Positions 8,973 through 45,501 of a DNA stretch of 64,000 nucleotides are shown in pieces; within the stretch, counting starts at the first letter, position 1; each line of letters opens with the position of its first letter. Source of the stretch: Plasmodiophora brassicae (taxonomy: Eukaryota); the NCBI GenBank assembly GCA_036867785.1, contig CP145419.1, forward strand, positions 744,001-808,000, given 5' to 3'. Both the position numbers and the translations under genes were made by a program. Under the pieces are notes generated by a model. The model was not told the origin of the DNA and did not search any database. It saw only the letters and a list, made by a program, of their open reading frames with translations.

Positions 8973-9827
8973 CTATACGGTGCAATTGCGGGCGTCGGGG
9001 CAGAACCGGGCAGTCGCTTTGTCGGTGGCGCCGCCGCCCAACGTGAAGTTCCTGTCGACTCGCGTCCTGCCGTCCAGTCGGAATCGGGCGTTCAGCAGGC
9101 CATTAGGCGCGTTCGCCGCCAGCAACTGTCGCGTGGGGACGGGCATGAACAGGACGCGATCGGGGATGTTCCCGTTGCTTCGGAACGTGCTCAGGGCGGT
9201 CGTCCCCATGCCGAACTCGAACTCGAACGGGGCCGACCTCGTCGTATCGCCGACGTCGACGCACAGGACAAGGACGCTGTCGTCGGTGACGGTGACGACC
9301 CGGCCGGTATCGTCCGACCCGTCGTTGCTGAGGTCGCCACAAGTCACCGACGACTGGTTGCCGGAGAACACCAATCGCGAGCGCAGTGCAGGCGGGTTGA
9401 CGATGAACGGGATCGCCGCCACCACCGTGCTGTCGGCAACGATCTGCGCCACGAGCGTGCGATCCCTGAACCGGTTGTAGAGCGCCGGTGCCGAGAAGCT
9501 CCCAACCAGGCAGGACGTCTGCGCCGGGAACGAATGGTCGTGCCAGGCCCAGACCGGGTCGGCATCGCGTCCGACCGGGGCCATCTGGATCGTGATGCGC
9601 GTGTCTGGTGAGATCCCATGGACATGCGCCATGATCCAGACGAAGCTGGACGCCTGGCACTGCACGACGCCAGACGCGTCCGGCGGCGAAGCGTCGCTGG
9701 GCGTATGGCAGGATGCAATGTCGGGCGTTTCGGTCAATGTCGTGAAGACGTGGGTCTGCGATACGTGTAGGGCGTGCGTGCCGGCCGCCAGCAGCAGCAG
9801 CAGTAGCCGCAGGGCGACAACGATCAT
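8973..9827 (-). CDS. Intronless secreted protein, beta-rich with several Cys
   Basis: Signal peptide MIVVALRLLLLLLAAGTHA; 284-aa single ORF. Confidence 0.75.
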   Translation of the reverse strand: MIVVALRLLLLLLAAGTHALHVSQTHVFTTLTETPDIASCHTPSDASPPDASGVVQCQASSFVWIMAHVHGISPDTRITIQMAPVGRDADPVWAWHDHSFPAQTSCLVGSFSAPALYNRFRDRTLVAQIVADSTVVAAIPFIVNPPALRSRLVFSGNQSSVTCGDLSNDGSDDTGRVVTVTDDSVLVLCVDVGDTTRSAPFEFEFGMGTTALSTFRSNGNIPDRVLFMPVPTRQLLAANAPNGLLNARFRLDGRTRVDRNFTLGGGATDKATARFCPDARNCTV

Positions 9828-10058
9828 TCGTTGTCCTACGCGTCCTGCGATAATAGAATGGTGACGATCTGGTATCTGCAACAGTGTGACTCATGCTCGA
9901 CGTCGACGATGCGTCATTCCGGACGGAACACGACGCGAGGACAGCGATCGAATACAGGTGGGTATCGTACATCGGTCCAGTGCCCAGTGAGCCATGGGCG
10001 AGAATCGCTGACGATGGTTTATTGATATCCGGGCAGCAACGGTCACTAGAGCGGCGCT

Positions 10059-10898
10059 CTAGACGGGGCTGACCTGGTCGAGCGGGATGTTATGGGCTAT
10101 GGCCCAATCGCGGTCCAGCAGCTTCTGGTAGTACGACCACATGACGTACCTGCAGGGCGTTGCCGCCTCGGTCAGACCTCGTGACGACGACAACGAGTGC
10201 CAGAGTCGCGCCGAGACCACCAACCAGTAGTATACGTTGACGGCGAGTTGGACCAGGGCGACGGGTAGCATTGTGCTGACGACCAGGCTGACGACCAGGT
10301 TCAGAACGATCTGCAGGCCACTAAGGATGATGGTGATGAACCCGGCCCGGCTCGACTTCTTGTACACCGCCGTCAGACATGCCGCGCCGAACACGATCAT
10401 TTCGAGGTACGGCAGCAGCTGCACAACAGCGCTTGCAGGACTCTGCCCACCTGGCGACTTGGCGTCAAACACGATCAAGAGGATCGTGCCGAGAACGCCA
10501 GCAATGGTGTTGACCCATCCGAAGCACAGCATCCCCGTTGGCAACCCGCACTGAGAAGATCCGACCCGATTAAAGCGTTGCCTAGCAGCAGCACACACAC
10601 ACACACGCGCGTGTGCATACCGGGCAGCAGCAGCACGGTATGCCTGGCAAGGTTTGGGGCCGTCAGTTCAGCTTGTAGTACCGCAGGTGAACGGTAGTCG
10701 CTGCCTACAGAAGCACCGGTTCGTGGGTTCGCAGCCCGGTTGGGGTCGCGTCTGAACGGCGGCCTGCCTCTCGGCAGGGTACGCGCCTGGCCTGTTCGGC
10801 GCAGGTGCGACCTGGGCGGGATTATGGGGCGCTGGAGACGGGTCATTCGCCACTGCTGCCGCCGGTCGATCCAGGGGCGCCACTTGGTCCGCCTGCAT
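10059..10898 (-). CDS. Four-TM membrane protein with Cys-rich N-terminus (LAPTM-like), multi-exon
   Basis: Pro-rich N-terminus, CFC/CCCCP cluster, four hydrophobic helices, YVMWSYYQKL C-terminal motif. Confidence 0.6.
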
Positions 10899-11330
10899 GT
10901 CGCCGCCAACTTCAGAAATTCCCGGCAGGGCCGGACCGTCACACAGCTGGGGATCAGCGGCAACAGAGTCCAGACCGGGGAGCCACCCGGGTACAAAGAA
11001 CAGCAGTCGGCCTAGGGCCGCGCGCGTAAACGACACCAGGCCTGTCCACCAGGTTTCCGTACCGGCGTACCATACTGTCGAGCGCGGGGCGAGGCGATCC
11101 CCGCTCAGGGCATCGCGGCCCCCACTGGGGAACGACGGACAGGACGGCTCCGTTGATTGACCGACAGGTTCCTCGCGTCCACCCGATGGTCAGCTATCGG
11201 CCATGTGGTTGAACGATCAGGTCCTGGCCAAGGGCAACGCTAACTGTCCGGCGTGTTATGCATATAAGGTACTGAAGCGGCGATATATCCCATCTAAGGG
11301 TGCCCATCCCGCTTGCCGGAGGGGTTCATT

Positions 11331-12477
11331 TCAAACAGCTCTGGGTGTTGGTTGATATGTGTTTGCCCAGCAACCGTCCGGTCGGCAGACGGTCACGCGT
11401 ACTCTAACCGGGCACGTCGCCGAGACGGACACGGGCACCTTCCGCGGAGGCACCTGGACCTGTTTCCTGTGCAGCCTGGTGGCCCGCCGCCAGGCGAGCA
11501 ACGCTTTGCAGGACAACGCATGGGCCCAATGGAGCAGGGCACGTCTGGTCTGGGCTCTGGCTTGAACGCGCCGCTGCCAAACATGGAAACCGGCGCGTAA
11601 CTCTCGCAGACGAACCATGGCGTTGTACCAGCCCAGCAGCACAACACGCTGTCGACGCTCGCGACACCATTCCTGACATTGTCGCCGGACAGTGACCGCC
11701 TGGACGAGACGCCGCCGCCAGGTAACAAAGACGCGACGTCGAAGGGACCGGTGGTAGAACGCGGCCACGAGGTGGCGAACCTGGCGGGTCCTGGCGAGCC
11801 ACCATCGCAGAGCGCGCGATAGCTGCCGCGACGCATGCCGTTCGCGAACGACTTGCTCACGACGCCAACGCTGGAACTGGACGAGGCGGACGGCTGCCGC
11901 CATGCGATGCAGGACGCGGCGGCGCCGGAAGGCGCCCGCCTGTGCCTCGAGGGCGCATTGCCGAGCAGCGGCGATCCAGTCGTCCAATCGCTTCCGCGCT
12001 GCACGCCTGGCGACGGCCGCCTCGGCCACGAAGTCGGACGCGTTCGTCGCCGCCGACGACGTCATCGCGACGGCGTGCCCCAGCGACGCGTGGTGCCTGC
12101 CGTTGCCCAGATATTTTCTGCATGAGACGAATCACTTCGCGGAAGACACGGCGCCACGCACCCGGACACACGCAGCGGCCGCCTCTTTAGCTCAGTTGGC
12201 AGAGCATCCGCTTCGTAAGCGGGAGGTCGTGGGTTCGATCCCCATTGGAGGCATACGCGCGCGCAGCAACCTGTTTTGCCCCGAGGTTCTGTGCGGTTCG
12301 GCCGCGGCGCGGAACACCGGAAGCGCGACGACATCGGGACCCGGCCGGGTGATGATCCTCCCGACCGCATTGCCGTCCCGGGTTGCCGTTCTCCGGTTCG
12401 CGCCCGGGACTTGGTCCTACGCTCCTCTCCGTAGGACGAATTCGATAGGGCGTCGACACGTATCGTCCACGATGCAT
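11331..12477 (-). CDS. Sfi1-like centrin-binding repeat protein, multi-exon
   Basis: Periodic motifs ALRWW, RRVFVTWRR, VVLLGWY, GFHVWQ, KALLAWRR; in-frame splicing MHRGRY|DQVP...GQNR|KYLG. Confidence 0.65.
12181..12253 (+). tRNA. trnT-CGT: tRNA-Thr(CGT)
   Basis: Cloverleaf: GCCTCTT/TGGAGGC acceptor, GCTC/GAGC D-stem, TCCGC-TT CGT AA-GCGGG anticodon arm, GTGGG-TTCGATC-CCCAT T-arm; A and B boxes present. Confidence 0.95.
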
Positions 12478-12714
12478 TATTGACTGCGTCGACAAGGGCA
12501 ACCAGCAGCGGTACGGCACACAGGCAGCGAGTTGGGGCCGCAACAGTCGATAGTGGATCAGTGTATTATGTGCATGAAGCAGGCAACGGGGTCGGTACAT
12601 GCGGCAATGGTTCCGAAGGTTTGACATGGACCGGCGCCACGCCTTGACACTGGGAAGGCATCCGTCGACGCCCCGTTTCCATCACCTATAAGGTAGTTCA
12701 GTCATGGGGATCAA

Positions 12715-13440
12715 ACGTCTGCCCGCCCATGCCACGCGCGAAGCCCGCAGGCACTGGCACACCTGAACATACGGGGCACGGCCATTGCTCGTGCCGCTGC
12801 TGGCGACGCAATGCTCTCCGCCCTATATAGGGAACGCGAGAGTCAAATGACCAGCGTAACACATGATCCGATTGGATGCACATCCCACCTGCACAAACGG
12901 GGCGGATTCGCGAATGTCGCGCTGGGCGGCGGCCACGTCTGTCGCCTGGACAACAATGCCAGATCATCGTCAGAAGGCAATCCCGAATGACAGATTCCGG
13001 GCAACCACACCTGCAAGTACGAGCACGCCAGCGCCAATTTGTCGTTGCGGGTGAGGTCGTGCTGCGGTGGCCGTCTCGTGATGAGCTCGATGAAGGCGCC
13101 GCGTTGGTCCAGCCAGACAACGGGCGACGTGGGGCGTTGCAGGCCGGCCCGGTCGGCATGTTGCTGTCGGATGGCGACCCCCGTGTGGGCCGGGTCGCCG
13201 GCCGTCACAACCTTTTCTGGCGTCCTGCGCCAGTCACGAAGGTCAGCCCATCCATGCCGCTGGCGATCGAGCGTCCAGCGACGTCGGCCGCCTACCGATG
13301 CGACACCGAGCGAGCTCGCGACGACCGGCGTGAGCGGAACAGTCGACGGACTGGAGGAGAACAGAACGTCAGTGCTGTTAGCGGTGAGTGCGCCGTCGGT
13401 CGTACGTACACCAGGCTCCTGCGCCAGCGAAGACTTGCAT
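12715..13440 (-). CDS. Hypothetical protein, multi-exon
   Basis: Open frame ...VVWLDQRGAFIELITRRPPQHDLTRNDKLALACSYLQ with flanking GT-AG introns; no domain recognised. Confidence 0.35.
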
Positions 13441-14951
13441 GATCACCCTCCCTGGCTGTGATCGTTCGTTCGACACGCGTCGCTTCCGGTCAAACTCAAC
13501 TGGCTTTGCGTAACGTGCCCGTCCTCCGATCATATCTGGGTATCCGGCTGGCCGGCTCGTATCACGATCTGCCCGTACCCGTATTAATTATCTTCAGCCA
13601 CACTGCAGGAATTCGCCTGTTTCCCGTCCCACGAGTCCGTTGCTCAGTGGTCCACTCAGCACCTGTCACCTCTTCAGTCAGGCACCGGAACGGCTGTTGT
13701 GTCCCGCCATTGTGTATTCGCCTGCCGACCTGTCGCAACAAACCTGCTGTTGCGCCAGGTGACGTCCAGTCCGTTTGTTCATGAATAAACGATTAAAGAA
13801 TGGTCACGAGCGTCCTCCCCGCTGATCGCTGCCATCTGTTCGGCAAGCGACGCGACGAAGCATGGGCATTCGTCGCTATCGTGTTGCTGCACTCGGTGGC
13901 ACATGTTTCAACGTGCGTCGAGTGGTTACAGCGCGCGGTCTAGGAAGGTCGTTATGTGTACATACGACCAAATTAGTGACTACCGGTACTCAGACATGGT
14001 CCGCGCGTACAGCAGAGATAACAAGGAAAGCGTCAAGGCCGACATAGACGACGCCAAAGAACCGGAACCCAACGATAATGGCACAGATAACAGCAGGGAA
14101 AACGACTGAGACTCTGAATCTGATATAATATATGTCAACTCCCGCAGAAGCAAAAGTACCTTGAATTATAGGGCGCAGCGAGGAGATCGACCAGCTGGCC
14201 AAACGAGCGGCCAGGAAGGGCCTGAGAAATATCACACGCACGCCGCTCCTGTCCTCCTACAAACTCCACCTACGATGCGTGGAGGCCTGACGATTAGAAG
14301 GATCACTTGAGCAGTTGGAAGGCAAAGGGGCGCCTGAAAAACAGGCGACCTCCTCCCACAAGGGGGATGGATGTCGTCAATAGTGTACGATAGATCAACC
14401 AGAGTAAGAAAGATCAAAGTCTATAAACCTTTGGGGACTCGCAGAGCCCTTAGATCGCCCCAGAGTCGCCAGACGGCAAGATCCCATCACAAAGGTGACT
14501 AGGCCGGCGCCGGCACAGCTGAACCTACGGGTCGTCCTCGGACTCGAGACCGAGGCGCCTGCGTGAAGAGCGCGAAACCCAAATAAACTAAACGACACTA
14601 CACTAACTCCAGCTGGCGTTACGTTCCCTGCCGACAGCACCGGCAATGATCAGCTAGGGCAAACGAGGCAAATCAGCACGTCCCGGGCGTACATTCGCAA
14701 ACGCTGTGCCGTACCACACCCGAGCACCGATATGGCCGTTAGCCTGTGTCCTCGAACGTCCTGTCCGACATTCCTATGTAGGGCGGCCGTCGTACAAGTG
14801 TCCTGTTCCGGAACGCGCTATTTGTGGGTTGTCTGCTTGCCGCGGATTTCGCGCGGGCGCCGGCCGTCCAGGCCCTGGAGACTGCGCCCCCGGCCTCGCG
14901 CGGGACTCATTCTGCAAGCTGCTGCGGGTGCATCCACGAGCCACGTCGGCA

Positions 14952-17320
14952 ATGGCGCTCTGGAAATCGTACGCATTGCTCTTCGCGTTCCTTGCCGGGC
15001 GCTGCGCTCTCGGTGGCGATGACGACGCCGTCAGCGACGCAGTCAAGACCCGAGACTTCGACCTGAATATGGCGTGGGACGCTGATCAAGACCCTGTCCA
15101 CGACATGACGTCAAACGCGGTGCCCAACCGCGCCAACCCTCCTTTTATGGTCGCTGATGACGCCGATGACGACGTCAACGGCGATGCAGTCGACACCAAC
15201 GTGGACCGGAATATTGCCTGGTGTGCTCATCGAGACCTAGACCACAGCGTGGCGTCAAACACGGTGACGAATCACGCCCATCTCTCCTTTTATTGCCGCT
15301 GCTGACATCTGCCAGGGAATGAACGACATCGGCAACCTGGGCGACGCCGCCGTCGACGTGGCGATGTCAACGGCAGAGTCTAACAGAGGACGTGATCCAG
15401 CATCGTACGCCACCGATCACCTGCTCAGCAGCCCGCCAATCTGGGCCCCGACGGACGTCGTCAGCTACATGCATGGCTCTGTTGGGCAAACGTGGGTATC
15501 GTACAATCAACACCAGATCATGACGTCTAACTTTGCTGCTGGGGCGACAACATCCAGCTCGATCCCTCAGGGCACAACAGTTACGTGTGGCCAATGCGCA
15601 GGCCTCTTTATATACGGACTGATCCGTAAGCTCCTTAAATAGCCTATTCACGGACTAGAACAGGAGGTTGTTTACGGATTACACGGATCACCGTAAGGGA
15701 TGGAGCATTCTGTTGGAATTTATTGTTCTACACGAACGTCAGCGCCTGAATGTTGCGCTCCTTCAAGGGACAGGTCGGTGATGGCCATTCGGTGGACGTC
15801 TTTCTCTGACTTCACGATGGAGAAATCGCTCTCGACTTGCGCAGTCCCAGGAAAGACGGTTGCCAGGCCATCGCTGAACCTCTACAAAGATAGGAAGCGC
15901 CCCTGCACTACTTTCCAGCTGGATTCAAAGGTGGAAGTTCCGCTTAAGGCATCGAGAGATGCTCGCAGAACTGGTTCGCGAGAATATGCGGCAACCAGCT
16001 CCTGATGTTCCTGTTCTATGGCATCAATATCGGTCCGGGTCCAGCGAACCAGTAGACGGTCAATGTGTCGGCGAACACCAACACAAAACTGCCTCGGAGG
16101 CAAGGTAACAAGTTCTTGCGGCGTGACAGGAGGGACGTGGTCAGCGCTGGCGACATTATTCTCGTCGCGTTCTGCAACAATGCTCGAGATACCGGACAGA
16201 GACGACGAGTACAGGTGGATCGTGTTGTCGACAACATTGGCGAAGGTCCCTGAGCCCATCCAATGCGGCCATGAACAAACGAACCCATGTCCAGAATACA
16301 GTTCTCGACACGTTGGCGATTGACGCCGACCGGTGGCATTTCGACAGCACCCACGTCTCGTCGAGTTCGTCAACCTGTTCCATGTTTCAACAGCTCACGC
16401 CCTTGGACCTGGTTCAACAATCTGGAGCAAAGGTCGCCAAGCGCCTGACGCTGAATGCTGACGGTGAGTTCGGGACTTTGGATCGTCCTGAAAGTAACCA
16501 TGCAAGTTGCGGCGAATTCGTGTACAACCAACATCATAACCCACCACTCGGGAGGTGTCTTTCACTCGCGTTGTGGGCTTGCGCTTCGCGCCGACCTTCT
16601 CCTCCCTGCCGAAGTGGGCGCAGAAGAGACATTCCACCCCTATCACAACATTCGTGTGTTGCTGGTGGGACTGGGTGGGGCGAACGGCGTAATCAACCGG
16701 GTGAGAGGCCTGGAAATCCGTTGTACGCGCTCCCGACGGCATGACAACCACGAAAACTACCCCAACGCGAACTCGCTTATTTATGGACTGACCGCCAGCT
16801 TGATTACGGCGCGCCACGGACTTTTGGGGTCAAAATCCGTATATAAAGAGGCCTGCCAATGCGGCAACCAGTTTTTCAACAAATCTAGCCTAAGGCGGCA
16901 TTTGACACGCGGTTGCAAGGGGCCGGAGCCGACCACATCCAGCTCGGTCCCGAAGGACACTATGTGTGTCCAATGCGGCAAGAAGCTTTCCACCGAATGG
17001 AACCTAAGGCGGCACATGATACGCGGTTGCAAGGCGCCGGGGCCGACCACATCCAGCTCGGTCCCGGATGCCACCACAGTTACGTGCGTTCATTGCCGCA
17101 AGAAGGTATTCAAACATAATCTACTTCGACACCAATACCGCTGCAAGGCTCTCAAGGTGCAGACGTTGTCCTATTGCCCATAGACCATATTGCCCAAATC
17201 ATCTCGGGTTTCGCCATCGCCACTTCCTGTGCAGACACCTGAGGACTCCCCCCCCCCCCCACACATAATGAAGCTGGCACAGAATTATTGGGACTCGTCA
17301 CCGGATGGCTGGCTGTTGCC
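14952..17320 (+). pseudogene. Secreted zinc-finger protein, copy 1, disrupted
   Basis: Signal peptide MALWKSYALLFAFLAGRCALG; intron 15264-15315; C2HC/C2H2 fingers; hAT insertion in the first finger; 7-bp frameshifting insertion at 17183-17189; LTR insertion at 17321; paralog of 37412-38288. Confidence 0.85.
15599..16855 (-). mobile_element. Non-autonomous hAT DNA transposon (1257 bp) with a transposase C-terminal remnant
   Basis: 20-bp TIR CAGGCCTCTTTATATACGGA; 8-bp TSD CCAATGCG (15591-15598, 16856-16863); minus-strand GLATVFPGTAQVESDFSIVKSEKD...TDLSLEG. Confidence 0.92.
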
Positions 17321-17543
17321 TGTGCCGGCTCCAAGCTATAAGACAAGAATAGCTGTGATCCGGCTAGGCCGCCCTAAGAATGACGGACATGCACGGAGTG
17401 CGCACGGAGTCCGCACGGCGTCCGCGGGAGCTGCAGGTCGGGGACACAGACGATTATACTACACGGCTGATATACCATCACCGTTGGGACGTCACAGAGA
17501 TCTCTTGAACATCCTTTCGGGGAAGGTTTCAAAGAAGGACGCG

Positions 17544-20500
17544 ATGGTGGCCACCGCGCAGGAGATGCTGCTGGAAGATGACGTCGATGATCGACAACAA
17601 GGACAGAGCGTGCAAGGCTCAACGATCGTCCTGCAGATGAACAAGGCGCCGACCTTGAAGAGCATGGACCGCAAGGCCGTCACGACGTTCATGGCCGAGC
17701 TGAAGACGTATCGGAATCACTTCCGGGACGATCCGAATGCCAAAGGCCAGATCCCACGGTCAGTGAGGAGTATGATCGACCCCGGTCTGCTCAGGGCGAT
17801 CTGCAAGTGGGAACTCGGCACGGACGCCGAGGGGGTGACGGAGAGCGACCTGATGGACTGGATGAAGAGGCATCTGGAGCAGGATCGCTCGACGGACGCG
17901 AACATCGACCGGGAGATGCGGAAGCTGGCGATGAAGCTGACCATCACCACACCAGCGGCAAGGGTCGTGAACCTCGTGCAGCAGTACGAGGAATTGGTCG
18001 CGCGCAACGGGTGGCAGGACCTCTTCACGTCCCGCGAGGGACGGAAGAACCTGGTCAAGTACCTACTGGGTGCTGTGCGCCCATCCGGTTTACAAGCGCT
18101 CATGCGGACCCTCGTCATGAAGCGCCAGACCGATCTCCAGAAGGACCCTTTGGAATTCTATCGGGTGCTGAAGGAACGGGCTGCATCGTATGAGGAGACG
18201 ATGTTGTACATGGAGCCGGGACGTGAGGATGGCAAGGGGAAGGGAAAGGTCAAACCCACCCCGAAGAAGCGAGGGGCGCAGACGGATGAAGGAGGCGATG
18301 GAGGCCGGGACACGAAACGACACCGGAAGGACCTGCGATGTTTCAACTGTGACGAGGTTGGACATCCAGCGTTTCGTTGCCCGAAGAAGCCTACCAAGAA
18401 GCAGGTCGCAGACCTGCTGAAGGATCGCCGCAAGGGGCCAACGGGAAGGGATGGACCCCGTAAGGCCAAATCTGATAAAGATGACGACTTGTCAGAGTAC
18501 CCATGGCTTCCAGTGGTAGGAAGAGTGTCGGAGGGGGCGCAGAGGACAGGGGACCAAGTAGTCGTTCGTGTAAACGGACATGAGGAAGACTACGTTGGGG
18601 TTCTGGACAGTGGAGCGACATCGGTTGACGTTCTGATGCCATTGACCATAGCGCGCGAGCTAATGGAGCGGGACCCATTGTTAACAATGGAGAACCTCCA
18701 GAAGCCGGAAACGTTCTGTCTGGTAGACAGAGAAACGAAGCACACAGCCTACCATGTGATGATACTGGATCTGGGACTGACGACGACGGCAGGCGAACTG
18801 ATCACTCGCCGGCGCCGATGCCTTGTATGGGACATTCCTGAAAAGGAAATAATCCTAGGGGAGAGGCTGTTGGACGAGTTGGGTATCCACCCAAAGAAGG
18901 CCCTGGACGTACTCATTAAGAGCACGCCGAAGAAGGGGAATGACGTCATGGATGAAGTGCACAATATGGCAAACGAGATGCCACCTCTCTGGGAAGGGGA
19001 GGAAGAGGAAACAGAGGATGTGAGGATCGGAACCGATTCCACAGACTCCCTGGAAAGGGAGATGGACGGGATGGCCGAGCGCGCATTGAGGAATGGCCTA
19101 CCGCAAGCGATGGGGAAATCGCTTCGGAAACTCGTCAGAAGATATAGGGACGTTTGGCGTATGAGCATTGGACCTGATGGTCCAGCCAGGGTTACACCAT
19201 TTGTCACGGAGCTGAAACCGGATGCGGAACCTTACAGGTGCCGAGCCAGAAAGTACAGTATGGAGGACAGTGCTTTCATGGAGGAATTCGTCGCCCAATT
19301 GAAGAAGTATGGCCTAGTCGTTGAAAACTACAACGCGAAGTGGGCTTCACCGGTGGTGGTGGTGACGAAGCCAGGGGGCGGAAAGCGGTTCTGTGTTGAT
19401 CTCAGAGCTGTTAATGCCAAATGTGTCGCCGTGGCGTGGCCTATGCCACATCAGGAGGCGATACTCAGGAACCTGGCAGGCTCGAGGTTCTGGTTTAAGC
19501 TAGATGCGTTCAAAGGCTTCTGGATGATGCCGCTGGATGAAGCGTGTCAGGAGATCTTCTCCTTCATGACAGATAAGGGGGTGTATAAGCCAACGAGGTC
19601 GATGCAGGGGGGAATGAACTCCGCCCCTCAGTATCAAGGGAGGATGTTTGAGGTGTTCGGGGAACTTATGTTCCACAAACTAATCATATGGATCGATGAT
19701 CTAATGGGGCATGCCCAAAGGGAGGATGATTGGTTCCGAACGTTGGAACGGACTCTGATGCTAGCCGAACGGCACAGCATCAAGTTCAACGTGGAGAAGT
19801 GTGAGCTCTTCACAACAGAGGTTCGGTTCTGTGGAAGGATATTCACGCCAGAAGGGGTAAGGCACGATCCTGCTAGGATTGAGGCTTTAATGGCGATACC
19901 ACAGCCGAGGACGGCAAGGGACTTGCAACAATTCCTTATGGCAACTCAGTGGATGAGTAGGTCCATCCCTGAGTACAACAGGAAGGTACACCTGTTACAG
20001 AGGATATACGAGGATGCAATGAAGGACCAACCTGGCAGGACGAAAGCCATTGCCAGGAGGGTGCGATTGTGCAAATATGGATGGTCACCCGAACATGCGC
20101 TGGCATTCGAGAAACTGAAGATGGCAGTGGCGGACACGGTCCAACTAGCGTACCCGCGAAAGGACCGGATCCAATGCCTATTCTCAGATGCAAATGAGGT
20201 TAACAGCGCGGCGGTAGTCACACAGATTCCGCCTGAGGACTTGGGTAAACCAGTGCATGGGCAGCGACATGAACCGCTGGGTTTCGTCGGACACAAGTTC
20301 GCGGGCCCAGAGCGGAACTGGTCCACGGTGGAGAAGGAAGGGTTCGCGATCAAGGATGGGATTGACAAACTGGACTATCTCGTTACAACCAACGAGCAGT
20401 TTCGTTTGTTTACCGATCATAGGAATCTCGTGAGGATATTCTCACCAACGGACGTGTCAAAGCCAACGGCGCAGAAACTGCAACGATGGGCACTGGACAT

Positions 20501-20612
20501 ACAGAGGGTCAACTACGTCATTGAACACATTGCGGGGGAGGACAATGTGTGGTCGGATCTTATGACGCGGTGGGGTGCACCGGACGGTGGGCCTGATGAC
20601 CAGCACCTAGAG
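17544..20612 (+). pseudogene. Family A copy 1 gag-pol, 5' part (Gag, PR, RT, RNase H)
   Basis: ATG at 17544; CFNCDEVGHPAFRC, VLDSGA, LDAFKGFW, WIDDL; broken by the family B insertion. Confidence 0.92.
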
Positions 20613-23600
20613 TGTTCATCCAGAGTACCAGTACTCAGATGATGCTGCTCAGATGCTGCTGCCACCCGGTCACATGATCATGACCGTACTCGACCCCGCA
20701 GCGGCCCTTGCTGTGACGATCCTGTCCAAATACATCAGTTCGTTATATCACCAGGCGCCGACTCTTGCGACCGACCGCCCCCGTAGTGGGCAGCGGCGGC
20801 GTTAGCACAGAAGCTTCTTGCGCAAAGAGCCCCAAGCAAACGAACTCACTTAATGGCAGGAGGTGGCCGCAGAGCGCCCGTTCGTCTACAGATGGAGGAC
20901 GACGCCAGGACCAACTCCGACGCCGAGGCCAAGGAGCATGAATCGTCGACAGATGACGAAATCGATCGAGGGCTTCAGTCAACAAACCTGCACGGTAAGA
21001 GCCCGATCTTTATGCCTTTGAAACCGCCCATCCTACGTACCCTGAGCCTTACGGCCAAGGACGGAATTAACGATTTCCTCAAGAAATATAGGAAACACGT
21101 CGAGATCGTTAACGAGCGCCGACTGATCTACAAGGAGGATATTCATCCGCCAACGGTGAAGTCATGCATTACCGAGGACGTCCTCAGAGGGATGTCGAAA
21201 TATCGCCTACGTCAACCCGCCAGCACGATCACGGATGGCGACATCATGAGCTACTTGAGGTCAGTCCAACGCAGGGAGGCTGATGTCGAGAGTTCGACAG
21301 ACATCAAGGCGCTTCTCACGAAGACAGTGGTCATGAACCTGTCAATCAAGAGTATTGAGGAACGTGTCACGTCTTTCTTCGCCAAGTTCGATGAGCTAAT
21401 CGACGACTATGGGCTACAAGACACATACGCCAAAGGAACGAAAGGAACCAAGCGCAAGATCAAGGTATTACGCGGAGGTATCCGTCCCACTGACCTTGCG
21501 GTTCTAGTCGAACGCGCGATCGAGTTCGGAGGGTGCAGGGACGCTGAGAAGGACGAGCTCAAATTCTTCGACCTCGTCGACCGTCTTGCCAAAGAGCAGG
21601 ACAAACACTTCCGGCTGCAAGCTGAGAAGAAGAAGTCTCCAGCGCAGACCATGTCCCCACCTGCAGGTAAGAAAGGTAAGGACGTTGTTGCTCCGAATAG
21701 GAATGGCGGCAAGCATCCGACAAATCCGATCGGACTGAAGACAGCTCAATCGTCCACATCGCAAACGAAAGACGAATCGAGGGACATCCCCGAGCACATC
21801 CGAAAACGTTTCGAAGGTAAGGATCCTCCAAAGGCAGGTTGCCTAATCTGCAAGGAGCAGCACTGGGTCCAAGTGTGCCCGAAGGCAACTCAAGGAGAAC
21901 GCAAAGCTGCCATTGAAAAGTTCCAGAAAGAGCGCAAAGAGAAGGAGGAGAGTAAGGGCAACGCAGACACGGCAAAGCGCATGGGCCCGCCGTCGCCGTC
22001 AACACCGTCCCCTATGAGACTTCGCTTCCAGAACTCGCTCGACCTTCCATTCGAAGCCGATAGTGGTGCGACGAAGACCGTCATTTCGCAATCGCAACTG
22101 CTACGGATTCAAGCCATCCAGCATGTCCCAGTCAAAGTGTTCGACCATCCAACGGAGGCGAAACTTGCAACGATCGGGGCTACGACAACAATTGTCGCCA
22201 CAGCGATCGTGGACATCACCATTGTCCCACCTTCGCATGGCAAACCTGCACATCTACGCGGGCGGGAAATCAACGTATGTCGCGAAGACCTATCTGATGA
22301 CATTGTCCTTTTAGGAGCCCCGGAACTGGACGCGTTGGGTATCAATCCAGCTACACAACTGAAGGAGATGTTAATCGAGGCAAATGGTCCTATCATCATC
22401 GAAGCGGATCCGACCCCGGAACGTCACGCCCCAGGTGGTCAAGGGATCACGATGAGAGCGGTAAGACACCCGGAGGTAAGTGGAACAACTCGCGATCATG
22501 AGCCCCAATTGGACACCAATGATCCGGGTGACGACTATGATGTCGAAATCGGAGAACACTCCGATACAGACGTGGACAGGGCAATAGACCGGATGATACA
22601 ACGTGCAACTGACTCCGGTTTCCCTAACGATCAAGTCCCGCGTCTACGCACAACTGTCAATCGACACAAAGACATATGGCGAACGAAGCTTGGCCGTGAT
22701 CCACCTGCGAAAGTAAGTCCACTGAAACTACACTTCAAAGCAGATGCTCGTCCTGTTCGTTGCCGAACACGAAGGTATACCCTCGAACATCAAAAATTCA
22801 TGGATGATCACGTAGGAACCTTGGCGGAAAACGATTTTGTGTACCGCAATCCGCACAGCAGGTACGCGTCGCCGTGTCTGGTCGTCGACAAGAAGGACAC
22901 GGAGGTTCGCGGCCATCGGCTGACCGTCGACATCAATGAAGCCGTCAACAAACAGACCGAACGCATTGCATGGCCGATGCCTCACATCGACATCATCCTG
23001 ACCTACCTACGTTCCGCGACCATCTTCATGCTGTTCGATGCCTTTAAAGGCTATTGGCAATTTCCGTTGCACCCTGATTCGCAGGAGGCCTGCTCGTTCA
23101 TGACGCACATCGCCACGTTTACACCCAGGCGCATCATCCAGGGAATCGCTGATTGCGTGTTTGCGTTCCAGGCGGGAATGCAACAGGTGTTGGGGAAACT
23201 TCTATATATCTGCGCCCTACTCTGGATCGACGATATCCTCGGCTACGTATCTGGATTCGGAGCCTACATGGACACACTCGAATCTCTTCTCAACGCTTTC
23301 GACGAGTTTGGAGTTAAACTCAACCCTGATCGCTGCCAGTTATATCTCACTTCAGTGACATGGTGCGGTCGCGTTATATCCGCTGATGGAGTGTCGTTCG
23401 ATCGCTCGTATCTCAACGCCTTGCACGATCTATCAACTCCTATCACGGCTGCTGATCTCCAACAGTTCCTCTCGGGCCTCAATTGGGTCCGTTCTGTTAT
23501 CCCTCAATTCGCGGCACATGTTCATCCGCTACAGGATCTACTTCTGTCCGCTTCTCGTTCTGTCAGCAGTCTGAAGAAATCACACCTACGTCGAGTTCGT

Positions 23601-25948
23601 TTAGCCGACATCGGCTGGACCACTGACCATCTCACCAGTTTCAATTCTCTGAAGCATCGACTATCGGAGGCCATGACGCTGGCGCACACCAAGGACGAAT
23701 GGATCATGTGTCTCTTTCCGGATGCGAGTGACCGTTTCTGGTCTGTTTTCCTGTCGCAGATCCCTCCGGAAGATATTGATCTCCCGTACGGTGAGCAACA
23801 CCACGAACCTTTGTCGTTCATCTCGGGGACATTCCGTGGTTCTCAATTGAAGTGGGCGACCATTGAGAAGGAGGCCTACGCCATCATTGAAGGCTGCTAT
23901 CGCCTCAGACACTTCATCTCTATGTCAAAGCTGGCACTTCGAATCTTCACAGACCACCGTAATTTGGTTTTCATTCTGAACCCAGCCTCGGTTGCACGAA
24001 TTAGTCGGACGACCGGCGATCGCTTGGAGCGCTGGCGACTTCAGATTATCGACCTAGATTTTCACATTGAGCACATTGCTGGGGAGGACAACGTTTGGGC
24101 CGACCTCGCCACGCGGTGGGGCGTCGCCCTGCAACCACTCTCCTCATTTTCCCCTCCATCGTTCCGTTCTATTCGTCATATGGCAATTAATCTTGACTTC
24201 GACGATTACAAGATGACCGATGAGTTTATCTGGCCGTCTGTCGACGAGATTAGTAACGCTCAGACCGACTACATTCGCCAACACGACCTATCTGCCGTTT
24301 CTGATATTCTCCAACTCGAAGGGGACATGTCTCTCCACCTTAGCCCGGAATCTGGCTGGCGTACTCCAGACAATCAACTCTGGGTACCATCACATGCACT
24401 GCAGCTACGCATCGCAGTGATTTCACATATGGGACTGTCTGGTCATCAACTTGCTGCATCGACTATTTCGAGCATCGCGCAACTCTTCTGGTGGCCTGAT
24501 CTCGATTCCTTTGTTCGTGCATTTGTGGACAAATGCTTACACTGCCTACGCAACAAAGATTCGATGATCCCCCGACCTTATGGCACGGCTATGCATGCGG
24601 ACAAGCCCAATAAGGTCATCCACTATGACTTTCTGTTCTTATCCAAACCTCGTCCAGGCGATTCTCATCAACTTCGTTATGTTCTGGTTCTGAAGGACGA
24701 CGCTACAGCATTCGTCGAGTTAATTCCTTGTCAATTCGCGGATCACAGCGTTGTCGCCGAATCTCTTCTGGATTGGTTCAAACGTTTCGGCATTGTTTTC
24801 CAACATGTCTCTGACCGCGGCACACACTTCAAAAACGCGGTTATCGCCGAGCTTAATAGCCGGTTACACTGCAACCATCATTTCACAACTGCCTACACAC
24901 CTTGGGCGAACGGCACGGTTGAGGTTGTCAACAAGCGGCTTCTCTTTCTGCTGAAGTCCCTCCTCTCCGAGCTAAATCTTCCATTCCAGGATTGGCCGTA
25001 TGTCCTTCCGCTGATCAACATGACGGTAAATCACACTGTTCGATCAAGTGTGGGCTACGCGCCTGTCACGATGTTTACGGGTTTGCCACCCTCGACACCT
25101 ATCTCGATTATCTTCAACAAACGCATCGACGCGGTTATCGACGTACCGTTGACCCCTGACCGTCTCAAGGAAATGACGACGGAACTTATCGATTCTCTCG
25201 AGGACATGCACAAAGAAGTGGCACGTACACGCACCCATCTACGTGATCTCAAGCAACGCGCCCGGCGTCGCCGACGCAATGTTCGCGAGATCAACTTCAC
25301 GACGGGCGACTATGTTCTCGTGGCCAACCATGGCAAGCACTCCAAGTCCGAGTACAACTGGACTGGACCTGCCCAGATTATCGACACCATCAACGACTGG
25401 GTGTATCGAGTTCGAGATCTCTTGACTGATCATATCTCAGATGTACACGCCCAGCGCTTAATGTTCTATGCAGATGCGCACTTGAATGTCACCTCTTCCC
25501 TGAAGCACAACATCGCGCTCACCGGCGTGGCTTACCAAGTCAACGCAGTCGAGGACATTCGAGTCAATTCTACGTCAGGTGACACTGAACTACTGATCAA
25601 CTGGATCGGATTCGATGCCACCGACAATTCATGGGAACCTTACTCGGTCATGGCGGCCGATGTTCCTGATATCGTCAGGGCCTTCCTCGAACGACAAGCC
25701 GAAGGAGACCCGCTCTGCTCACGACTGTTAGCAGATTTCTAACACGGGGAGTGTTCATCCAGAGTACCAGTACTCAGATGATGCTGCTCAGATGCTGCTG
25801 CCACCCGGTCACATGATCATGACCGTACTCGACCCCGCAGCGGCCCTTGCTGTGACGATCCTGTCCAAATACATCAGTTCGTTATATCACCAGGCGCCGA
25901 CTCTTGCGACCGACCGCCCCCGTAGTGGGCAGCGGCGGCGTTAGCACA
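20613..25948 (+). mobile_element. Ty3/Gypsy chromoviral LTR retrotransposon, family B copy 1, intact
   Basis: 197-bp LTRs at 20613-20809 and 25752-25948; 5-bp TSD TAGAG; inserted in family A pol. Confidence 0.97.
20853..25742 (+). CDS. Family B Gag-Pol polyprotein, 1629 aa
   Basis: CLICKEQHWVQVC knuckle, ADSGA protease, FDAFKGYWQ/WIDD RT, RNase H, HHCC + DDE integrase, chromodomain (LLINWIGF...SWEP). Confidence 0.96.
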   Translation: MAGGGRRAPVRLQMEDDARTNSDAEAKEHESSTDDEIDRGLQSTNLHGKSPIFMPLKPPILRTLSLTAKDGINDFLKKYRKHVEIVNERRLIYKEDIHPPTVKSCITEDVLRGMSKYRLRQPASTITDGDIMSYLRSVQRREADVESSTDIKALLTKTVVMNLSIKSIEERVTSFFAKFDELIDDYGLQDTYAKGTKGTKRKIKVLRGGIRPTDLAVLVERAIEFGGCRDAEKDELKFFDLVDRLAKEQDKHFRLQAEKKKSPAQTMSPPAGKKGKDVVAPNRNGGKHPTNPIGLKTAQSSTSQTKDESRDIPEHIRKRFEGKDPPKAGCLICKEQHWVQVCPKATQGERKAAIEKFQKERKEKEESKGNADTAKRMGPPSPSTPSPMRLRFQNSLDLPFEADSGATKTVISQSQLLRIQAIQHVPVKVFDHPTEAKLATIGATTTIVATAIVDITIVPPSHGKPAHLRGREINVCREDLSDDIVLLGAPELDALGINPATQLKEMLIEANGPIIIEADPTPERHAPGGQGITMRAVRHPEVSGTTRDHEPQLDTNDPGDDYDVEIGEHSDTDVDRAIDRMIQRATDSGFPNDQVPRLRTTVNRHKDIWRTKLGRDPPAKVSPLKLHFKADARPVRCRTRRYTLEHQKFMDDHVGTLAENDFVYRNPHSRYASPCLVVDKKDTEVRGHRLTVDINEAVNKQTERIAWPMPHIDIILTYLRSATIFMLFDAFKGYWQFPLHPDSQEACSFMTHIATFTPRRIIQGIADCVFAFQAGMQQVLGKLLYICALLWIDDILGYVSGFGAYMDTLESLLNAFDEFGVKLNPDRCQLYLTSVTWCGRVISADGVSFDRSYLNALHDLSTPITAADLQQFLSGLNWVRSVIPQFAAHVHPLQDLLLSASRSVSSLKKSHLRRVRLADIGWTTDHLTSFNSLKHRLSEAMTLAHTKDEWIMCLFPDASDRFWSVFLSQIPPEDIDLPYGEQHHEPLSFISGTFRGSQLKWATIEKEAYAIIEGCYRLRHFISMSKLALRIFTDHRNLVFILNPASVARISRTTGDRLERWRLQIIDLDFHIEHIAGEDNVWADLATRWGVALQPLSSFSPPSFRSIRHMAINLDFDDYKMTDEFIWPSVDEISNAQTDYIRQHDLSAVSDILQLEGDMSLHLSPESGWRTPDNQLWVPSHALQLRIAVISHMGLSGHQLAASTISSIAQLFWWPDLDSFVRAFVDKCLHCLRNKDSMIPRPYGTAMHADKPNKVIHYDFLFLSKPRPGDSHQLRYVLVLKDDATAFVELIPCQFADHSVVAESLLDWFKRFGIVFQHVSDRGTHFKNAVIAELNSRLHCNHHFTTAYTPWANGTVEVVNKRLLFLLKSLLSELNLPFQDWPYVLPLINMTVNHTVRSSVGYAPVTMFTGLPPSTPISIIFNKRIDAVIDVPLTPDRLKEMTTELIDSLEDMHKEVARTRTHLRDLKQRARRRRRNVREINFTTGDYVLVANHGKHSKSEYNWTGPAQIIDTINDWVYRVRDLLTDHISDVHAQRLMFYADAHLNVTSSLKHNIALTGVAYQVNAVEDIRVNSTSGDTELLINWIGFDATDNSWEPYSVMAADVPDIVRAFLERQAEGDPLCSRLLADF

Positions 25949-25953
25949 TAGAG

Positions 25954-27552
25954 GTACGCACGATCAGGAGGATAACGCTTCAAATTGAGGACGGATATCG
26001 GGTACGGCCGTTACAAAGGAAGGAATTCCAATGGCCGACCGTGGACGAAATCCGTAAGGCTCAGAGGAAATGGCTCAGAGGAACGAAACGACCGAAGAAT
26101 GGTGATGATCTCTTCGTCACAGGGAAGGGACAGGTGATCATACCAGACGAATGCAACGAGCTGAAGCTGCAGCTATGCGCTATTGCTCATGCGGGCGGAA
26201 ACAGTGGGCATCTAGGACTGAAGGCCTCGTTGAGGAAGTTGGGGGAGTTCTGCCATTGGGCACACTGCGATGAGGACATGAGGACGTTCTGCAACGCGTG
26301 TTTGAACTGTCTACCGACAAGGGGCGGGGTTAGGATTCCCAGGCCATTGGGAACAGCTGTTCATGGTGTTAGGCCGAATCAGGTGATTCACTTGGATTGG
26401 CTATACATGATGGCGGCTCAGAAGGGCGGAAGACATGATCTGCAATGGAACCTGATAATCAGGGATGATCTGTCTGGCATGGTCAAGATTACTCCTGACC
26501 ATACACCCAATGCGGAAACCACTGTAGAGGCACTGCTCGAATGGAGGGCTATCTTCGGAACGTTTGAGTTGATGGTGTCAGACATGGCGTCTTGCTTTCT
26601 GGCAAACGTTGTGAAGGAACTGGCGCGTCGATGTGGATTTGCTCATCACCCGACTGTTGCCTATGGGCATTACAGTAATGGATCAATTGAGGTGATCAAC
26701 AGGAACTACTTGCAACTAGTCAGAGCACTTCTGTCTGAATTGCAGTGGGACAAATACGATTGGCCATGGTTGAACCACAACATTGAACACACGATCAATC
26801 ACAGGTCGCAGGCGCGTACCAACGGGAATGCGCCAGTGACAGTGATGATGGGACGTCAACCAGACAACCCGCTGAAGCAAGTGTTCAAGAGGCCAGGGGA
26901 TGAGAAGTATGGGGAAGCTACACTCTCAAAGGAGCATATTCAGGAGCTAGTCATGCAATTGCAGACGTCGCTGAATGAAATGCACAAGGGAGCAGTGCAG
27001 CAATCGAAGAAAATCCGAGCCGTACACAGGAAGAGGAGCGACGCGTACCGACGAGCAACTGCACCGAACTTTCAGATCGGTGACTATGTACTCATCGGAT
27101 TGCCTGAACCGGGTAAGGTTCCGGGCAAGAAGCTCTTTATGAAGTGGCGGGGCCTATATCAAATAACTGATAGCCACGAGAACTACACCTACGAGGTGAG
27201 GAATATGTTCAATGAGACGGACACTCGAACCGTTCACGGGGACCGCGTTCGCCTCTATGAACATGGCAAAGTGAATGCCACTGAGGAACTGAAGCGACAG
27301 ATGGATTATGACAATGAGCGTTTCGCCATTGAAGTCTTCAAGGACTGCAGGCACAGTCCGGAGACAGGGGAATTGGAATTGTTGATCGGATGGAAGGGTT
27401 TCTCTGAAGCGGAGGATTCATGGGAGCCAATCTGCAGGTTGGCGATGGATGTACCGAAGCTGGTGAAGGCACATGCCGCCAGGATGAGGAAGGAGAAACA
27501 TCACCTTGCTGATGAGGTTAAGGAGTTACTTAAGGCGGAAGGAGTCCAGTAG
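25954..27552 (+). pseudogene. Family A copy 1 gag-pol, 3' part (integrase and chromodomain)
   Basis: Frame resumes after the TSD; HLDW, VSDMA, NGSIE; LLIGWKGF...SWEP. Confidence 0.92.
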
Positions 27553-28338
27553 GCTAGTCATGCTTTTTTCCCGGATGCGCGCTGGGTTATTTTAATGCCG
27601 ACGGCCATGTGACGACAGAAGCCAAAACTGTGTTCTACGAAGATTGAGACTTAATTATGTTAATTAGACTATATTAAGGAGAAGACATGATTAGGATACA
27701 CCACCACTGAAGACACCTGCAAGGAGGAGCATTTCTTTGAAGGAGGGGAATGTGCCGGCTCCAAGCTATAAGACAAGAATAGCTGTGATCCGGCTAGGCC
27801 GCCCTAAGAATGACGGACATGCACGGAGTGCGCACGGAGTCCGCACGGCGTCCGTGGGAGCTGCAGGTCGGGGACACAGACGATTATACTACACGGCTGA
27901 TATACCATCACCGTTGGGACGTCACAGACGTCCCTTGTGGTGGACGGGCAACAACCAATTGGTGCTCGCCCGGGCCTTCCGCGTCTGTCGAGGGGTGTTG
28001 TCCAGCGGATCGCTGCGGCCCTTTGCGGCGACCCTCGATCTGCCTGTCACCTGCAGGCAGACCCCGTCTGGCGAAGGCGGCGTAGAGCAGCAGCAGTAGT
28101 CGGAGACCATCAATGCGCCGCGCGTGTAGCTGATCGCAGCGACGTTCGCAGGAACGTGCCACATGCGCTTCCTCGAGTCGGCTTATCGCTGTACCGGCTG
28201 ACACGTGCTTCGCTGTTGTGCCCCGCAACGTCTGAGCCGCTGTCAGGTCGGGTCTGTCAGGTCGAGTCGCAATGACAATCAATCAGCGGCGTCACTTTGC
28301 GTGTGAACTGTGCCTCCAGATAGAGGTCCAGCGAGGCA

Positions 28339-31300
28339 TGTGACGTCCCAACGGTGATGGTATATCAGCCGTGTAGTATAATCGTCTGTGTCCCCGACCT
28401 GCAGCTCCCGCGGACGCCGTGCGGACTCCGTGCGCACTCCGTGCATGTCCGTCATTCTTAGGGCGGCCTAGCCGGATCACAGCTATTCTTGTCTTATAGC
28501 TTGGAGCCGGCACATTCCCCTCCTTCAACGAAATGCTCCTCCTTGCAGGTGTCTTCAGTGGTGGTGTATCCTAATCATGTCTTCTCCTTAATATAGTCTA
28601 ATTAACATAATTAAGTCTCAATCTTCGTAGAACACAGTTTTGGCTTCTGTCGTCACATGGCCGTCGGCATTAAAATAACCCAGCGCGCATCCGGGAAAAA
28701 AGCATGACTAGCCTACTGGACTCCTTCCGCCTTAAGTAACTCCTTAACCTCATCAGCAAGGTGATGTTTCTCCTTCCTCATCCTGGCGGCATGTGCCTTC
28801 ACCAGCTTCGGTACATCCATCGCCAACCTGCAGATTGGCTCCCATGAATCCTCCGCTTCAGAGAAACCCTTCCATCCGATCAACAATTCCAATTCCCCTG
28901 TCTCCGGACTGTGCCTGCAGTCCTTGAAGACTTCAATGGCGAAACGCTCATTGTCATAATCCATCTGTCGCTTCAGTTCCTCAGTGGCATTCACTTTGCC
29001 ATGTTCATAGAGGCGAACGCGGTCCCCGTGAACGGTTCGAGTGTCCGTCTCATTGAACATATTCCTCACCTCGTAGGTGTAGTTCTCGTGGCTATCAGTT
29101 ATTTGATATAGGCCCCGCCACTTCATAAAGAGCTTCTTGCCCGGAACCTTACCCGGTTCAGGCAATCCGATGAGTACATAGTCACCGATCTGAAAGTTCG
29201 GTGCAGTTGCTCGTCGGTACGCGTCGCTCCTCTTCCTGTGTACGGCTCGGATTTTCTTCGATTGCTGCACTGCTCCCTTGTGCATTTCATTCAGCGACGT
29301 CTGCAATTGCATGACTAGCTCCTGAATATGCTCCTTTGAGAGTGTAGCTTCCCCATACTTCTCATCCCCTGGCCTCTTGAACACTTGCTTCAGCGGGTTG
29401 TCTGGTTGACGTCCCATCATCACTGTCACTGGCGCATTCCCGTTGGTACGCGCCTGCGACCTGTGATTGATCGTGTGTTCAATGTTGTGGTTCAACCATG
29501 GCCAATCGTATTTGTCCCACTGCAATTCAGACAGAAGTGCTCTGACTAGTTGCAAGTAGTTCCTGTTGATCACCTCAATTGATCCATTACTGTAATGCCC
29601 ATAGGCAACAGTCGGGTGATGAGCAAATCCACATCGACGCGCCAGTTCCTTCACAACGTTTGCCAGAAAGCAAGACGCCATGTCTGACACCATCAACTCA
29701 AACGTTCCGAAGATAGCCCTCCATTCGAGCAGTGCCTCTACAGTGGTTTCCGCATTGGGTGTATGGTCAGGAGTAATCTTGACCATGCCAGACAGATCAT
29801 CCCTGATTATCAGGTTCCATTGCAGATCATGTCTTCCGCCCTTCTGAGCCGCCATCATGTATAGCCAATCCAAGTGAATCACCTGATTCGGCCTAACACC
29901 ATGAACAGCTGTTCCCAATGGCCTGGGAATCCTAACCCCGCCCCTTGTCGGTAGACAGTTCAAACACGCGTTGCAGAACGTCCTCATGTCCTCATCGCAG
30001 TGTGCCCAATGGCAGAACTCCCCCAACTTCCTCAACGAGGCCTTCAGTCCTAGATGCCCACTGTTTCCGCCCGCATGAGCAATAGCGCATAGCTGCAGCT
30101 TCAGCTCGTTGCATTCGTCTGGTATGATCACCTGTCCCTTCCCTGTGACGAAGAGATCATCACCATTCTTCGGTCGTTTCGTTCCTCTGAGCCATTTCCT
30201 CTGAGCCTTACGGATTTCGTCCACGGTCGGCCATTGGAATTCCTTCCTTTGTAACGGCCGTACCCGATATCCGTCCTCAATTTGAAGCGTTATCCTCCTG
30301 ATCGTGCGTACCTCTAGGTGCTGGTCATCAGGCCCACCGTCCGGTGCACCCCACCGCGTCATAAGATCCGACCACACATTGTCCTCCCCCGCAATGTGTT
30401 CAATGACGTAGTTGACCCTCTGTATGTCCAGTGCCCATCGTTGCAGTTTCTGCGCCGTTGGCTTTGACACGTCCGTTGGTGAGAATATCCTCACGAGATT
30501 CCTATGATCGGTAAACAAACGAAACTGCTCGTTGGTTGTAACGAGATAGTCCAGTTTGTCAATCCCATCCTTGATCGCGAACCCTTCCTTCTCCACCGTG
30601 GACCAGTTCCGCTCTGGGCCCGCGAACTTGTGTCCGACGAAACCCAGCGGTTCATGTCGCTGCCCATGCACTGGTTTACCCAAGTCCTCAGGCGGAATCT
30701 GTGTGACTACCGCCGCGCTGTTAACCTCATTTGCATCTGAGAATAGGCATTGGATCCGGTCCTTTCGCGGGTACGCTAGTTGGACCGTGTCCGCCACTGC
30801 CATCTTCAGTTTCTCGAATGCCAGCGCATGTTCGGGTGACCATCCATATTTGCACAATCGCACCCTCCTGGCAATGGCTTTCGTCCTGCCAGGTTGGTCC
30901 TTCATTGCATCCTCGTATATCCTCTGTAACAGGTGTACCTTCCTGTTGTACTCAGGGATGGACCTACTCATCCACTGAGTTGCCATAAGGAATTGTTGCA
31001 AGTCCCTTGCCGTCCTCGGCTGTGGTATCGCCATTAAAGCCTCAATCCTAGCAGGATCGTGCCTTACCCCTTCTGGCGTGAATATCCTTCCACAGAACCG
31101 AACCTCTGTTGTGAAGAGCTCACACTTCTCCACGTTGAACTTGATGCTGTGCCGTTCGGCTAGCATCAGAGTCCGTTCCAACGTTCGGAACCAATCATCC
31201 TCCCTTTGGGCATGCCCCATTAGATCATCGATCCATATGATTAGTTTGTGGAACATAAGTTCCCCGAACACCTCAAACATCCTCCCTTGATACTGAGGGG

Positions 31301-45495: not shown

Positions 45496-45501
45496 GCATT
45501 C

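Follow-up and report, generated by a model that had tools for sequence, protein, structure and literature searches.

Boeke et al. reportedly found in 1985 that an intron engineered into a Ty element was precisely lost from new copies via spliced RNA, and exitrons, a term linked to Marquez et al. (2015), are said to be exonic introns that are defined by the observed alternative splicing of cellular genes. Natural splices in long terminal repeat (LTR) elements are described for copia, BARE1, EVADE, Ogre and CRR in excerpts of two papers (PMC3735527, PMC12786077), and the latter excerpt also describes the intron-marked Ty experiment (PMC12786077). BARE1, a single-open reading frame (ORF) element, carries an intron of 104 nt where gag ends, and its use is facultative. 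According to the excerpted text, splicing shifts the BARE1 frame such that only Gag is made, and DNA copied from its spliced RNA was not amplifiable (Chang et al. 2013, PMC3735527). L1 SpIREs, in turn, are presented in the excerpted account as copies of occasionally spliced retroelement RNA, with splicing shown by reverse transcription-polymerase chain reaction (Larson et al. 2018, PMC5860796). Here we analyze a stretch of 64,000 nt from Plasmodiophora brassicae (contig CP145419.1, positions 744,001 to 808,000 of the forward strand; the window), in which a Ty3/gypsy chromovirus, named element A, occurs in three copies. Copy 2 lacks exactly 54 nt that copies 1 and 3 carry in frame between the Gag zinc knuckle and the protease. 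On balance, we think it probable, if by no means assured, that a rarely spliced genomic RNA with weak, cryptic, exitron-like splice sites gave rise to copy 2, or to the insertion that donated the respective part of it.

Like the BARE1 splice, as excerpted, the putative splice would be a short alternative intron close to the gag/pol border, in an LTR element with one ORF and with bulk genomic RNA that is unspliced (PMC3735527). In contrast to BARE1, the gap in element A preserves the frame, and the presumed spliced form does exist as a DNA copy. With the SpIREs of the excerpted account, the locus shares a genomic copy without a segment that is bounded by the element's own donor and acceptor, i.e., what would be a by-product of cryptic sites (PMC5860796). 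However, L1 is a non-LTR element, and the SpIRE splices described in that excerpt lie in the 5' untranslated region or in ORF1 and damage promoter or ORF1p, which makes these copies dead ends (PMC5860796). Element A is an LTR chromovirus in which the presumed splice lies in a linker and in frame, with the frame intact and both LTRs present, and its case is known here from the DNA gap alone.

Results

Copy 2 of element A lacks exactly 54 nt

Element A of P. brassicae has a single gag-pol frame and 176-bp LTRs with TG..CA ends. Its Pfam matches follow the order zf-CCHC (weak), RVT_1, RT_RNaseH, Integrase_H2C2 and Chromo, where the Chromo match is weak, with 19.4 bits versus a cutoff of 25.1. Judged by LTR ends, domain order and the C-terminal chromodomain, weak as its match is, element A is a Ty3/gypsy chromovirus (Metaviridae). 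A public protein that is 100% identical to part of element A carries the name Plasmodiophora brassicae, and so does a second relative. The region is a nest of LTR retrotransposons (Table 1). Copies 1 to 3 show pairwise identities of 99.3–99.95%; element A is a young, transcribed chromovirus.

The segment in copies 1 and 3 reads GTAAGGCC...GGCTTCCAG. It consists of 18 stop-free codons in frame, and both forms are translatable. An earlier note on this DNA had claimed that exactly these 54 nt are present in copies 1 and 3 and gone from copy 2, and we could confirm coordinates and junction. As the note had also claimed, copy 2 stays open without the segment: its frame has 1640 codons and runs through to the chromodomain, and the codon C/TG at the junction encodes Leu, which yields GPLVG. 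Across the site, the protein thus reads GRDGPRKAKSDKDDDLSEYPWLPVVGRVS in copy 1 and GRDGPLVGRVS in copy 2. Only one placement of the gap is possible, as microhomology is 0 on both sides. Moreover, the gap is the sole deletion among copies 1–3, the other indel being one 3-nt insertion in copy 3. Copy 2 hence displays what is expected of a retro-copy, i.e., both LTRs and an open frame, with only the donor-to-acceptor segment gone. The zinc knuckle upstream of the site is conserved in an alignment of relatives (C266/C269/H274/C279).

Among public proteins, P0004 from P. brassicae matches copy 2 from about position 32280 downwards. Its gene model begins at an internal Met just past the protease D-S-G motif and has 7 extra residues at the end. 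With residues 300–560 as query, P0004 was the sole match at near lengths, and there was none among shorter public proteins. The Gag-protease part of the element A family, 54-nt site included, is unannotated in public proteins.

Table 1. Features of element A, its copies and the 54-nt site in the window (TSD, target-site duplication; SNP, single-nucleotide polymorphism).
Feature	Position	Strand	Remarks
Copy 1 of element A	17321-27926	+	LTRs 17321-17496 and 27751-27926
Element B inside copy 1	20613-25948		TSD TAGAG
Copy 2 of element A	28339-33549	-	5211 bp, uninterrupted, gag-pol frame open
LTRs of copy 2	33374-33549 (5'), 28339-28514 (3')	-	Identical at 175/176 positions
Copy 3 of element A	44792-58169	+	5' LTR reduced to 9 nt; 3' LTR without its last 47 nt
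Nested elements in copy 3	45093-48070; 52202-57537		TSD GGTCT; element B, reversed, TSD GCCTC
54-nt intron-like segment, copy 1	18460-18513	+	GTAAGG..CTTCCAG, phase 1; retained form encodes RKAKSDKDDDLSEYPWLP(V)
54-nt segment, copy 3	48747-48800	+	Sequence identical to copy 1 segment
Copy 2 junction without the 54 nt	32411/32410	-	Reads ...GGATGGACCCC/TGGTAGGAAG...
CCHC zinc knuckle of Gag/nucleocapsid (CFNCDEVGHPAFRC)	18339-18380	+	Upstream of segment; Pfam zf-CCHC weak
Protease motif LDSGA	18603-18617	+	Downstream of segment
Protease active-site codons D-S-G	18606-18614	+	31 codons downstream of segment; D355-S356-G357 invariant in alignment
Nearest SNP private to copy 2	18263	+	Copy 2 has A (32607), the other two copies have G; 197 nt upstream of segment

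The gap has the ends and the length of a host intron

We slid a 54-nt deletion over the sense strand of element A to count how often its ends look like splice sites. GT..AG ends were found at 24 of 5217 places and GTNNG..YAG at 5/5217, while GTAAG..YAG occurred at 1/5217, which is the site of the observed gap. GTAAG as such is present at only four sites on the sense strand, and the gap begins at one of them.

Host introns were available for comparison from ten cases between 8000 and 17000 that RNA contigs confirmed, with lengths of 49, 54, 60, 61, 63, 65, 66, 66, 71 and 77 nt and with CAG, TAG or GAG as acceptors. One of them, at 8542–8595, has 54 nt and the same GTAAGG donor as the segment. 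The earlier note had put host introns in the window at 52–57 nt, which is only roughly right in view of the confirmed range of 49–77 nt (n = 10), the 54-nt intron notwithstanding. For 86 P. brassicae introns, excerpted data give a median of 55, a mean of 55.66 and a standard deviation of 7.01 (PMC2483917); an average of about 60 bp was given elsewhere (PMC4471660). With its GT-AG ends and a size within range, the segment appears host-like in donor, acceptor and length.

Because of the exact GTAAGG..CAG ends, the host-like length, the zero microhomology and the obligatory RNA stage of the element, a spliced RNA origin explains the sequence of copy 2 best. The earlier note had proposed this origin; it holds as an explanation of the sequence and found no confirmation in the RNA contigs described below. 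As an alternative, the 54 nt might have been deleted by chance and without the spliceosome, either through blunt end-joining after insertion or through a template jump of reverse transcriptase. We consider this unlikely, though it is a rival to be reckoned with. The rarity of such ends on element A and a length on the host intron mode speak against it, the absence of microhomology makes slippage or template switching less likely, and there are no further deletions among the copies of element A or of element B, a second chromovirus of the region. The points in its favor are given together with the RNA data.

RNA contigs retain the segment

Four public runs (X1, X2, X19 and X20), all in the form of assembled contigs, were compared with positions 8000–20600; contigs drop rare variants. 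X19 and X20 are the two runs on record as RNA. For X1 and X2, RNA had merely been presumed; both turn out to be RNA-like, since ten GT..AG introns, from host genes of both strands, are missing from their contigs, and these introns are found there in spliced form only.

In X1 and X2, one long contig per run spans 17468–20600 with six substitutions and no gap. These contigs share the letters of copy 2 at 17425, 17660, 17738, 17744, 17756 and 17821, plus C at 18878. Position 18263 is G in these contigs, in contrast to the A of copy 2, and the 54 nt are present. Over 17468–20600, copy 2 differs from the expressed form by the gap and the one SNP at 18263 and by nothing else. The segment is thus present on both SNP haplotype groups and absent in copy 2 alone, which points to a loss in copy 2 rather than a gain elsewhere. 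The majority state of the two kinds of sequence differs: host introns are removed, the 54-nt segment is kept.

Several observations weigh against a spliced RNA as the source of copy 2. The element contigs of the X1 and X2 runs (5118 nt at depth 43.5; 4971 nt at depth 98.3) keep the 54 nt, with 0 gaps across 18460–18513. The earlier note had called for a search for spliced junctions, which we ran on contigs: the joint 18459/18514 was absent from the contigs of 4/4 runs, where contigs cannot exclude a rare spliced form, and bulk RNA retains the segment. X19 and X20 cover just 17460–17757 and 19306–19484, not the segment, and the element contigs could include carried-over DNA of a multi-copy family. 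Furthermore, the branch motif lies outside the host range. YTRAY is found 13–27 nt before the acceptor in 8/10 host introns and is missing in 2/10, and tctgac is the commonest branch hexamer of P. brassicae in the excerpted data (PMC2483917). The segment offers CTGAT at 38 nt and the near-motif ATGAC at 29 nt from the acceptor, together with two inner AGs. Only one intron-less copy exists within the window. The flanks of copy 2, CAGCG and TGCCT, mismatch, i.e., there is no TSD, and a blunt DNA deletion may by chance show the ends observed.

For the chance deletion, the missing spliced RNA in the contigs, the single copy of its kind in the window and the branch motif all count in its favor, and so do the reciprocal LTR SNP and the mismatched TSDs of copies 1 and 2 (see below), from which it follows that the locus suffered events at the DNA level. 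The poor branch signal also fits a segment that is mostly retained. An assembly artefact in copy 2 might be suspected since repeats are hard to assemble and the junction was unseen in the four runs. An exact, in-frame loss of 54 nt with splice-site ends is, however, untypical of assembly error, and copy 2 has private SNPs and flanks of its own; an artefact hence appears barely credible.

The segment is old coding sequence

The Gag-protease part of copy 1 (P0005) served as query against 1.84 billion representative proteins, and 227 relatives had E <= 0.001. Relatives that span the site were aligned, 10 in alignment A1 and then 22. At the place of the segment, 7/10 have a homologous in-frame stretch (P0009, P0010, P0014, P0021, P0024, P0068 and P0122), all of them metagenome proteins with 27–40% identity to P0005. 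Their stretch consists of a Lys-rich run, S-x-Y, two hydrophobic residues and VCR(I/L)G, a pattern that was repeated in the 22-protein alignment. The Tyr that is conserved in the relatives lines up with Tyr319 of SEYPWLPV, and the donor GTAAG is formed by Arg-Lys codons within the Lys-rich run. As relatives bear a homologous in-frame stretch, the segment is not an inserted non-coding intron; going by its sequence, it would at most be an exitron-like cryptic intron within coding sequence.

Copy 2 might also be taken as ancestral, in which case the lineage leading to copies 1 and 3 would have acquired the 54 nt as an intron or insertion. The bare presence/absence pattern would fit this, with nothing further to add. 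Relatives at 25–40% identity bear the homologous stretch at the same place, the segment sits on both SNP haplotypes, and there is no flanking duplication. A gain is therefore highly improbable, and intron gain in copies 1 and 3 was rejected in view of the homologous stretch.

In an AlphaFold model based on a 24-row alignment, confidence is high for the capsid-like helices and for the protease barrel, while P0005 residues 295–336, which enclose the segment (306–324), have a predicted local distance difference test (pLDDT) score <50. The linker around the segment is probably disordered, and the model suggests that loss of 18 linker residues should be structurally tolerated.

Could the segment be a regulated, facultative intron, in line with the suggestion of the earlier note that splicing might control processing? 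It would then be an intron or exitron in the linker between nucleocapsid and protease that is conserved among plasmodiophorid chromoviruses, with two polyprotein forms and tuned self-processing. As part of the same reading, the spliced RNA would be fully replication-competent and the family kept dimorphic. The segment is in frame and stop-free, copy 2 is intact without it, and the removed S-E-Y aligns with the conserved S-x-Y, hydrophobic residues and VCR(I/L)G of the seven relatives. Moreover, P0013 (CRZ08288.1) of Spongospora subterranea, a species from a sister genus, is without the K-rich..S-x-Y stretch in frame (..KEMAELL/LVCRIGKVV..) and resumes at LVCRIG, so that it shares its downstream boundary with copy 2. 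We take CRZ08288.1 to belong to a transcriptome project. The S. subterranea data of this project are a Trinity transcriptome (PMC4471660). P0013 is probably transcript-derived; a related element's transcript might have been spliced here, or mere divergence might account for the gap. Its gap has a different upstream boundary, and it also shows a 17-residue gap and a 26-residue insert, which may point to plain divergence.

Further points speak against regulation: bulk RNA retains the segment, and no contig carries the junction. The intron-less state would be irreversible, and efficient splicing with copying would quickly turn the family intron-less, yet intron-carrying forms predominate (2/3 copies and both contigs). 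This would mean that splicing is a rare event, or else that selection favors the 18 residues. All in all, we regard a regulated intron as rather doubtful, and full replication competence of the spliced RNA with a dimorphic family as equally so. The conserved S-x-Y is possibly the N-terminal cleavage site of the protease. Control of Gag/protease processing by splicing has no direct support; the one hint at it is a conserved Tyr motif in the removed stretch, which lies upstream of the protease core.

Searches in other data gave no additional relatives. The exact 31-mer just upstream of the segment had 0 matches in JGI metagenome contigs, and a protein-guided scan of viral contigs yielded no relatives of element A. 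In a protein-guided scan of metagenome contigs, L001–L003 matched only in the zinc-knuckle region (residues 238–287) and were discarded as not being real relatives.

Copies 1 and 2 have probably exchanged ends

Copies 1 and 2 are inverted neighbors, 412 bp apart, and neither has a matching 5-bp TSD, as judged from the flanks 17316–17320, 27927–27931, 28334–28338 and 33550–33554. TGCC is shared between the 5' flank of copy 1 and the 3' flank of copy 2. The sole LTR difference is reciprocal: copy 1 has C in its 5' LTR (17425) and T in its 3' LTR (27855), copy 2 has T in its 5' LTR (33445) and C in its 3' LTR (28410). The simplest reading is that a crossover between the inverted copies flipped the DNA between them. 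In that case, both copies as they now stand would be chimeric, and the intron-less part may stem from either original insertion. The crossover leaves the argument from the gap unchanged; the insertion event of copy 2 is unreadable from its present flanks.

Neighboring elements and genes

Element B, the second chromovirus, has a 1629-aa frame and interrupts element A in two of its copies, each time at another site and with one insertion reversed relative to the other. Its two copies (20613–25948 and 52202–57537) differ by 11 mismatches and 0 indels in 5336 nt, which suggests that element B was recently active and nested into other elements. The other insertion in copy 3, at 45093–48070, is a 2978-bp LTR element with 143-bp LTRs of 100% identity and the TSD GGTCT. 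Its coding part is limited to a gag-protease frame (zf-CCHC, RVP_2), without reverse transcriptase or integrase, and it contains a run with 10-nt periodicity at 45240–45497. It seems to be non-autonomous and very young. About 120 bp past the truncated 3' LTR of copy 3, a tandem array at 58293–58724 comprises about 16 units, with variants, of a 26-nt repeat (AATTTCACTGTCATATGAAACGGACG).

Upstream of copy 1, the stretch 15946–16800 has high depth in the X1 and X2 contigs and occurs in two variants, one with >20 substitutions and small indels; this is probably another repeat family. The frame 16455–17183 contains repeated Cys/His-rich units with a C..C..H..C pattern. A tRNA-Thr (CGT) gene at 12181–12253 (+) adjoins a host gene on the minus strand (12686–13295), whose four introns (77, 66, 65 and 71 nt) were confirmed by an X1 contig.

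Discussion

A copy-back of rarely spliced RNA, which we favor for copy 2, could have proceeded as follows. Within ordinary coding sequence, 54 nt happen to combine a good donor, a good acceptor and the modal length of host introns and, with no well-placed branch motif, would act like an exitron, as a cryptic intron that is weak. The segment is retained in most RNA, which would be translated with 18 extra residues of a probably disordered linker, while the spliceosome would occasionally remove it. The primer site is far upstream of the segment and the polypurine tract (PPT) far downstream of it, and cis signals would be untouched. A spliced RNA would hence keep R-U5 with the primer-binding site, PPT-U3-R and an intact frame, so that packaging, reverse transcription and integration might all be possible. 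Still encoding the full polyprotein, it could have been copied into a new insertion, i.e., copy 2 or its donor. We infer that splicing occurs, that it is rare and that the loss of the segment is a by-product and not a device.

A function as in BARE1 was considered and rejected, as the gap is in frame and would leave the Gag:Pol ratio unaltered. In BARE1, copia and EVADE, Gag is boosted by removal or frameshifting of pol; copy 2, in contrast, reads 1640 codons to the chromodomain. As in the intron-marked Ty, an intron would be precisely gone from a copy through a spliced RNA stage. The Ty intron was engineered and efficiently spliced, whereas the segment of element A is natural coding sequence with weak signals. 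Like an exitron, the segment is a coding stretch inside an exon with a length that is a multiple of three and with splice signals, translatable in both forms and homologous to protein sequence of relatives. Unlike exitrons, it resides in a transposon, and only the retained form is seen in the RNA contigs. By analogy, the case is best read as an LTR-element counterpart of the L1 SpIREs and a natural repeat of the intron-in-Ty experiment. In the literature searched, we found no report on introns in P. brassicae retrotransposons; supplements of a pangenome preprint might hold annotations of transposable elements.

By itself, the case reveals no new mechanism but a known kind of accident. Irrespective of its origin, the conserved Tyr motif before the protease is flagged as a candidate cleavage site, and the presence or absence of the 54 nt provides a simple marker for recent activity of the family across many clubroot assemblies. 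If the copy-back from spliced RNA is true, copy 2 would be a natural record of the host spliceosome acting on the genomic RNA of a retrotransposon. The spliced RNA would still have been packaged and integrated, which is documented for human L1 and for engineered Ty and is the opposite of what the BARE1 paper found.

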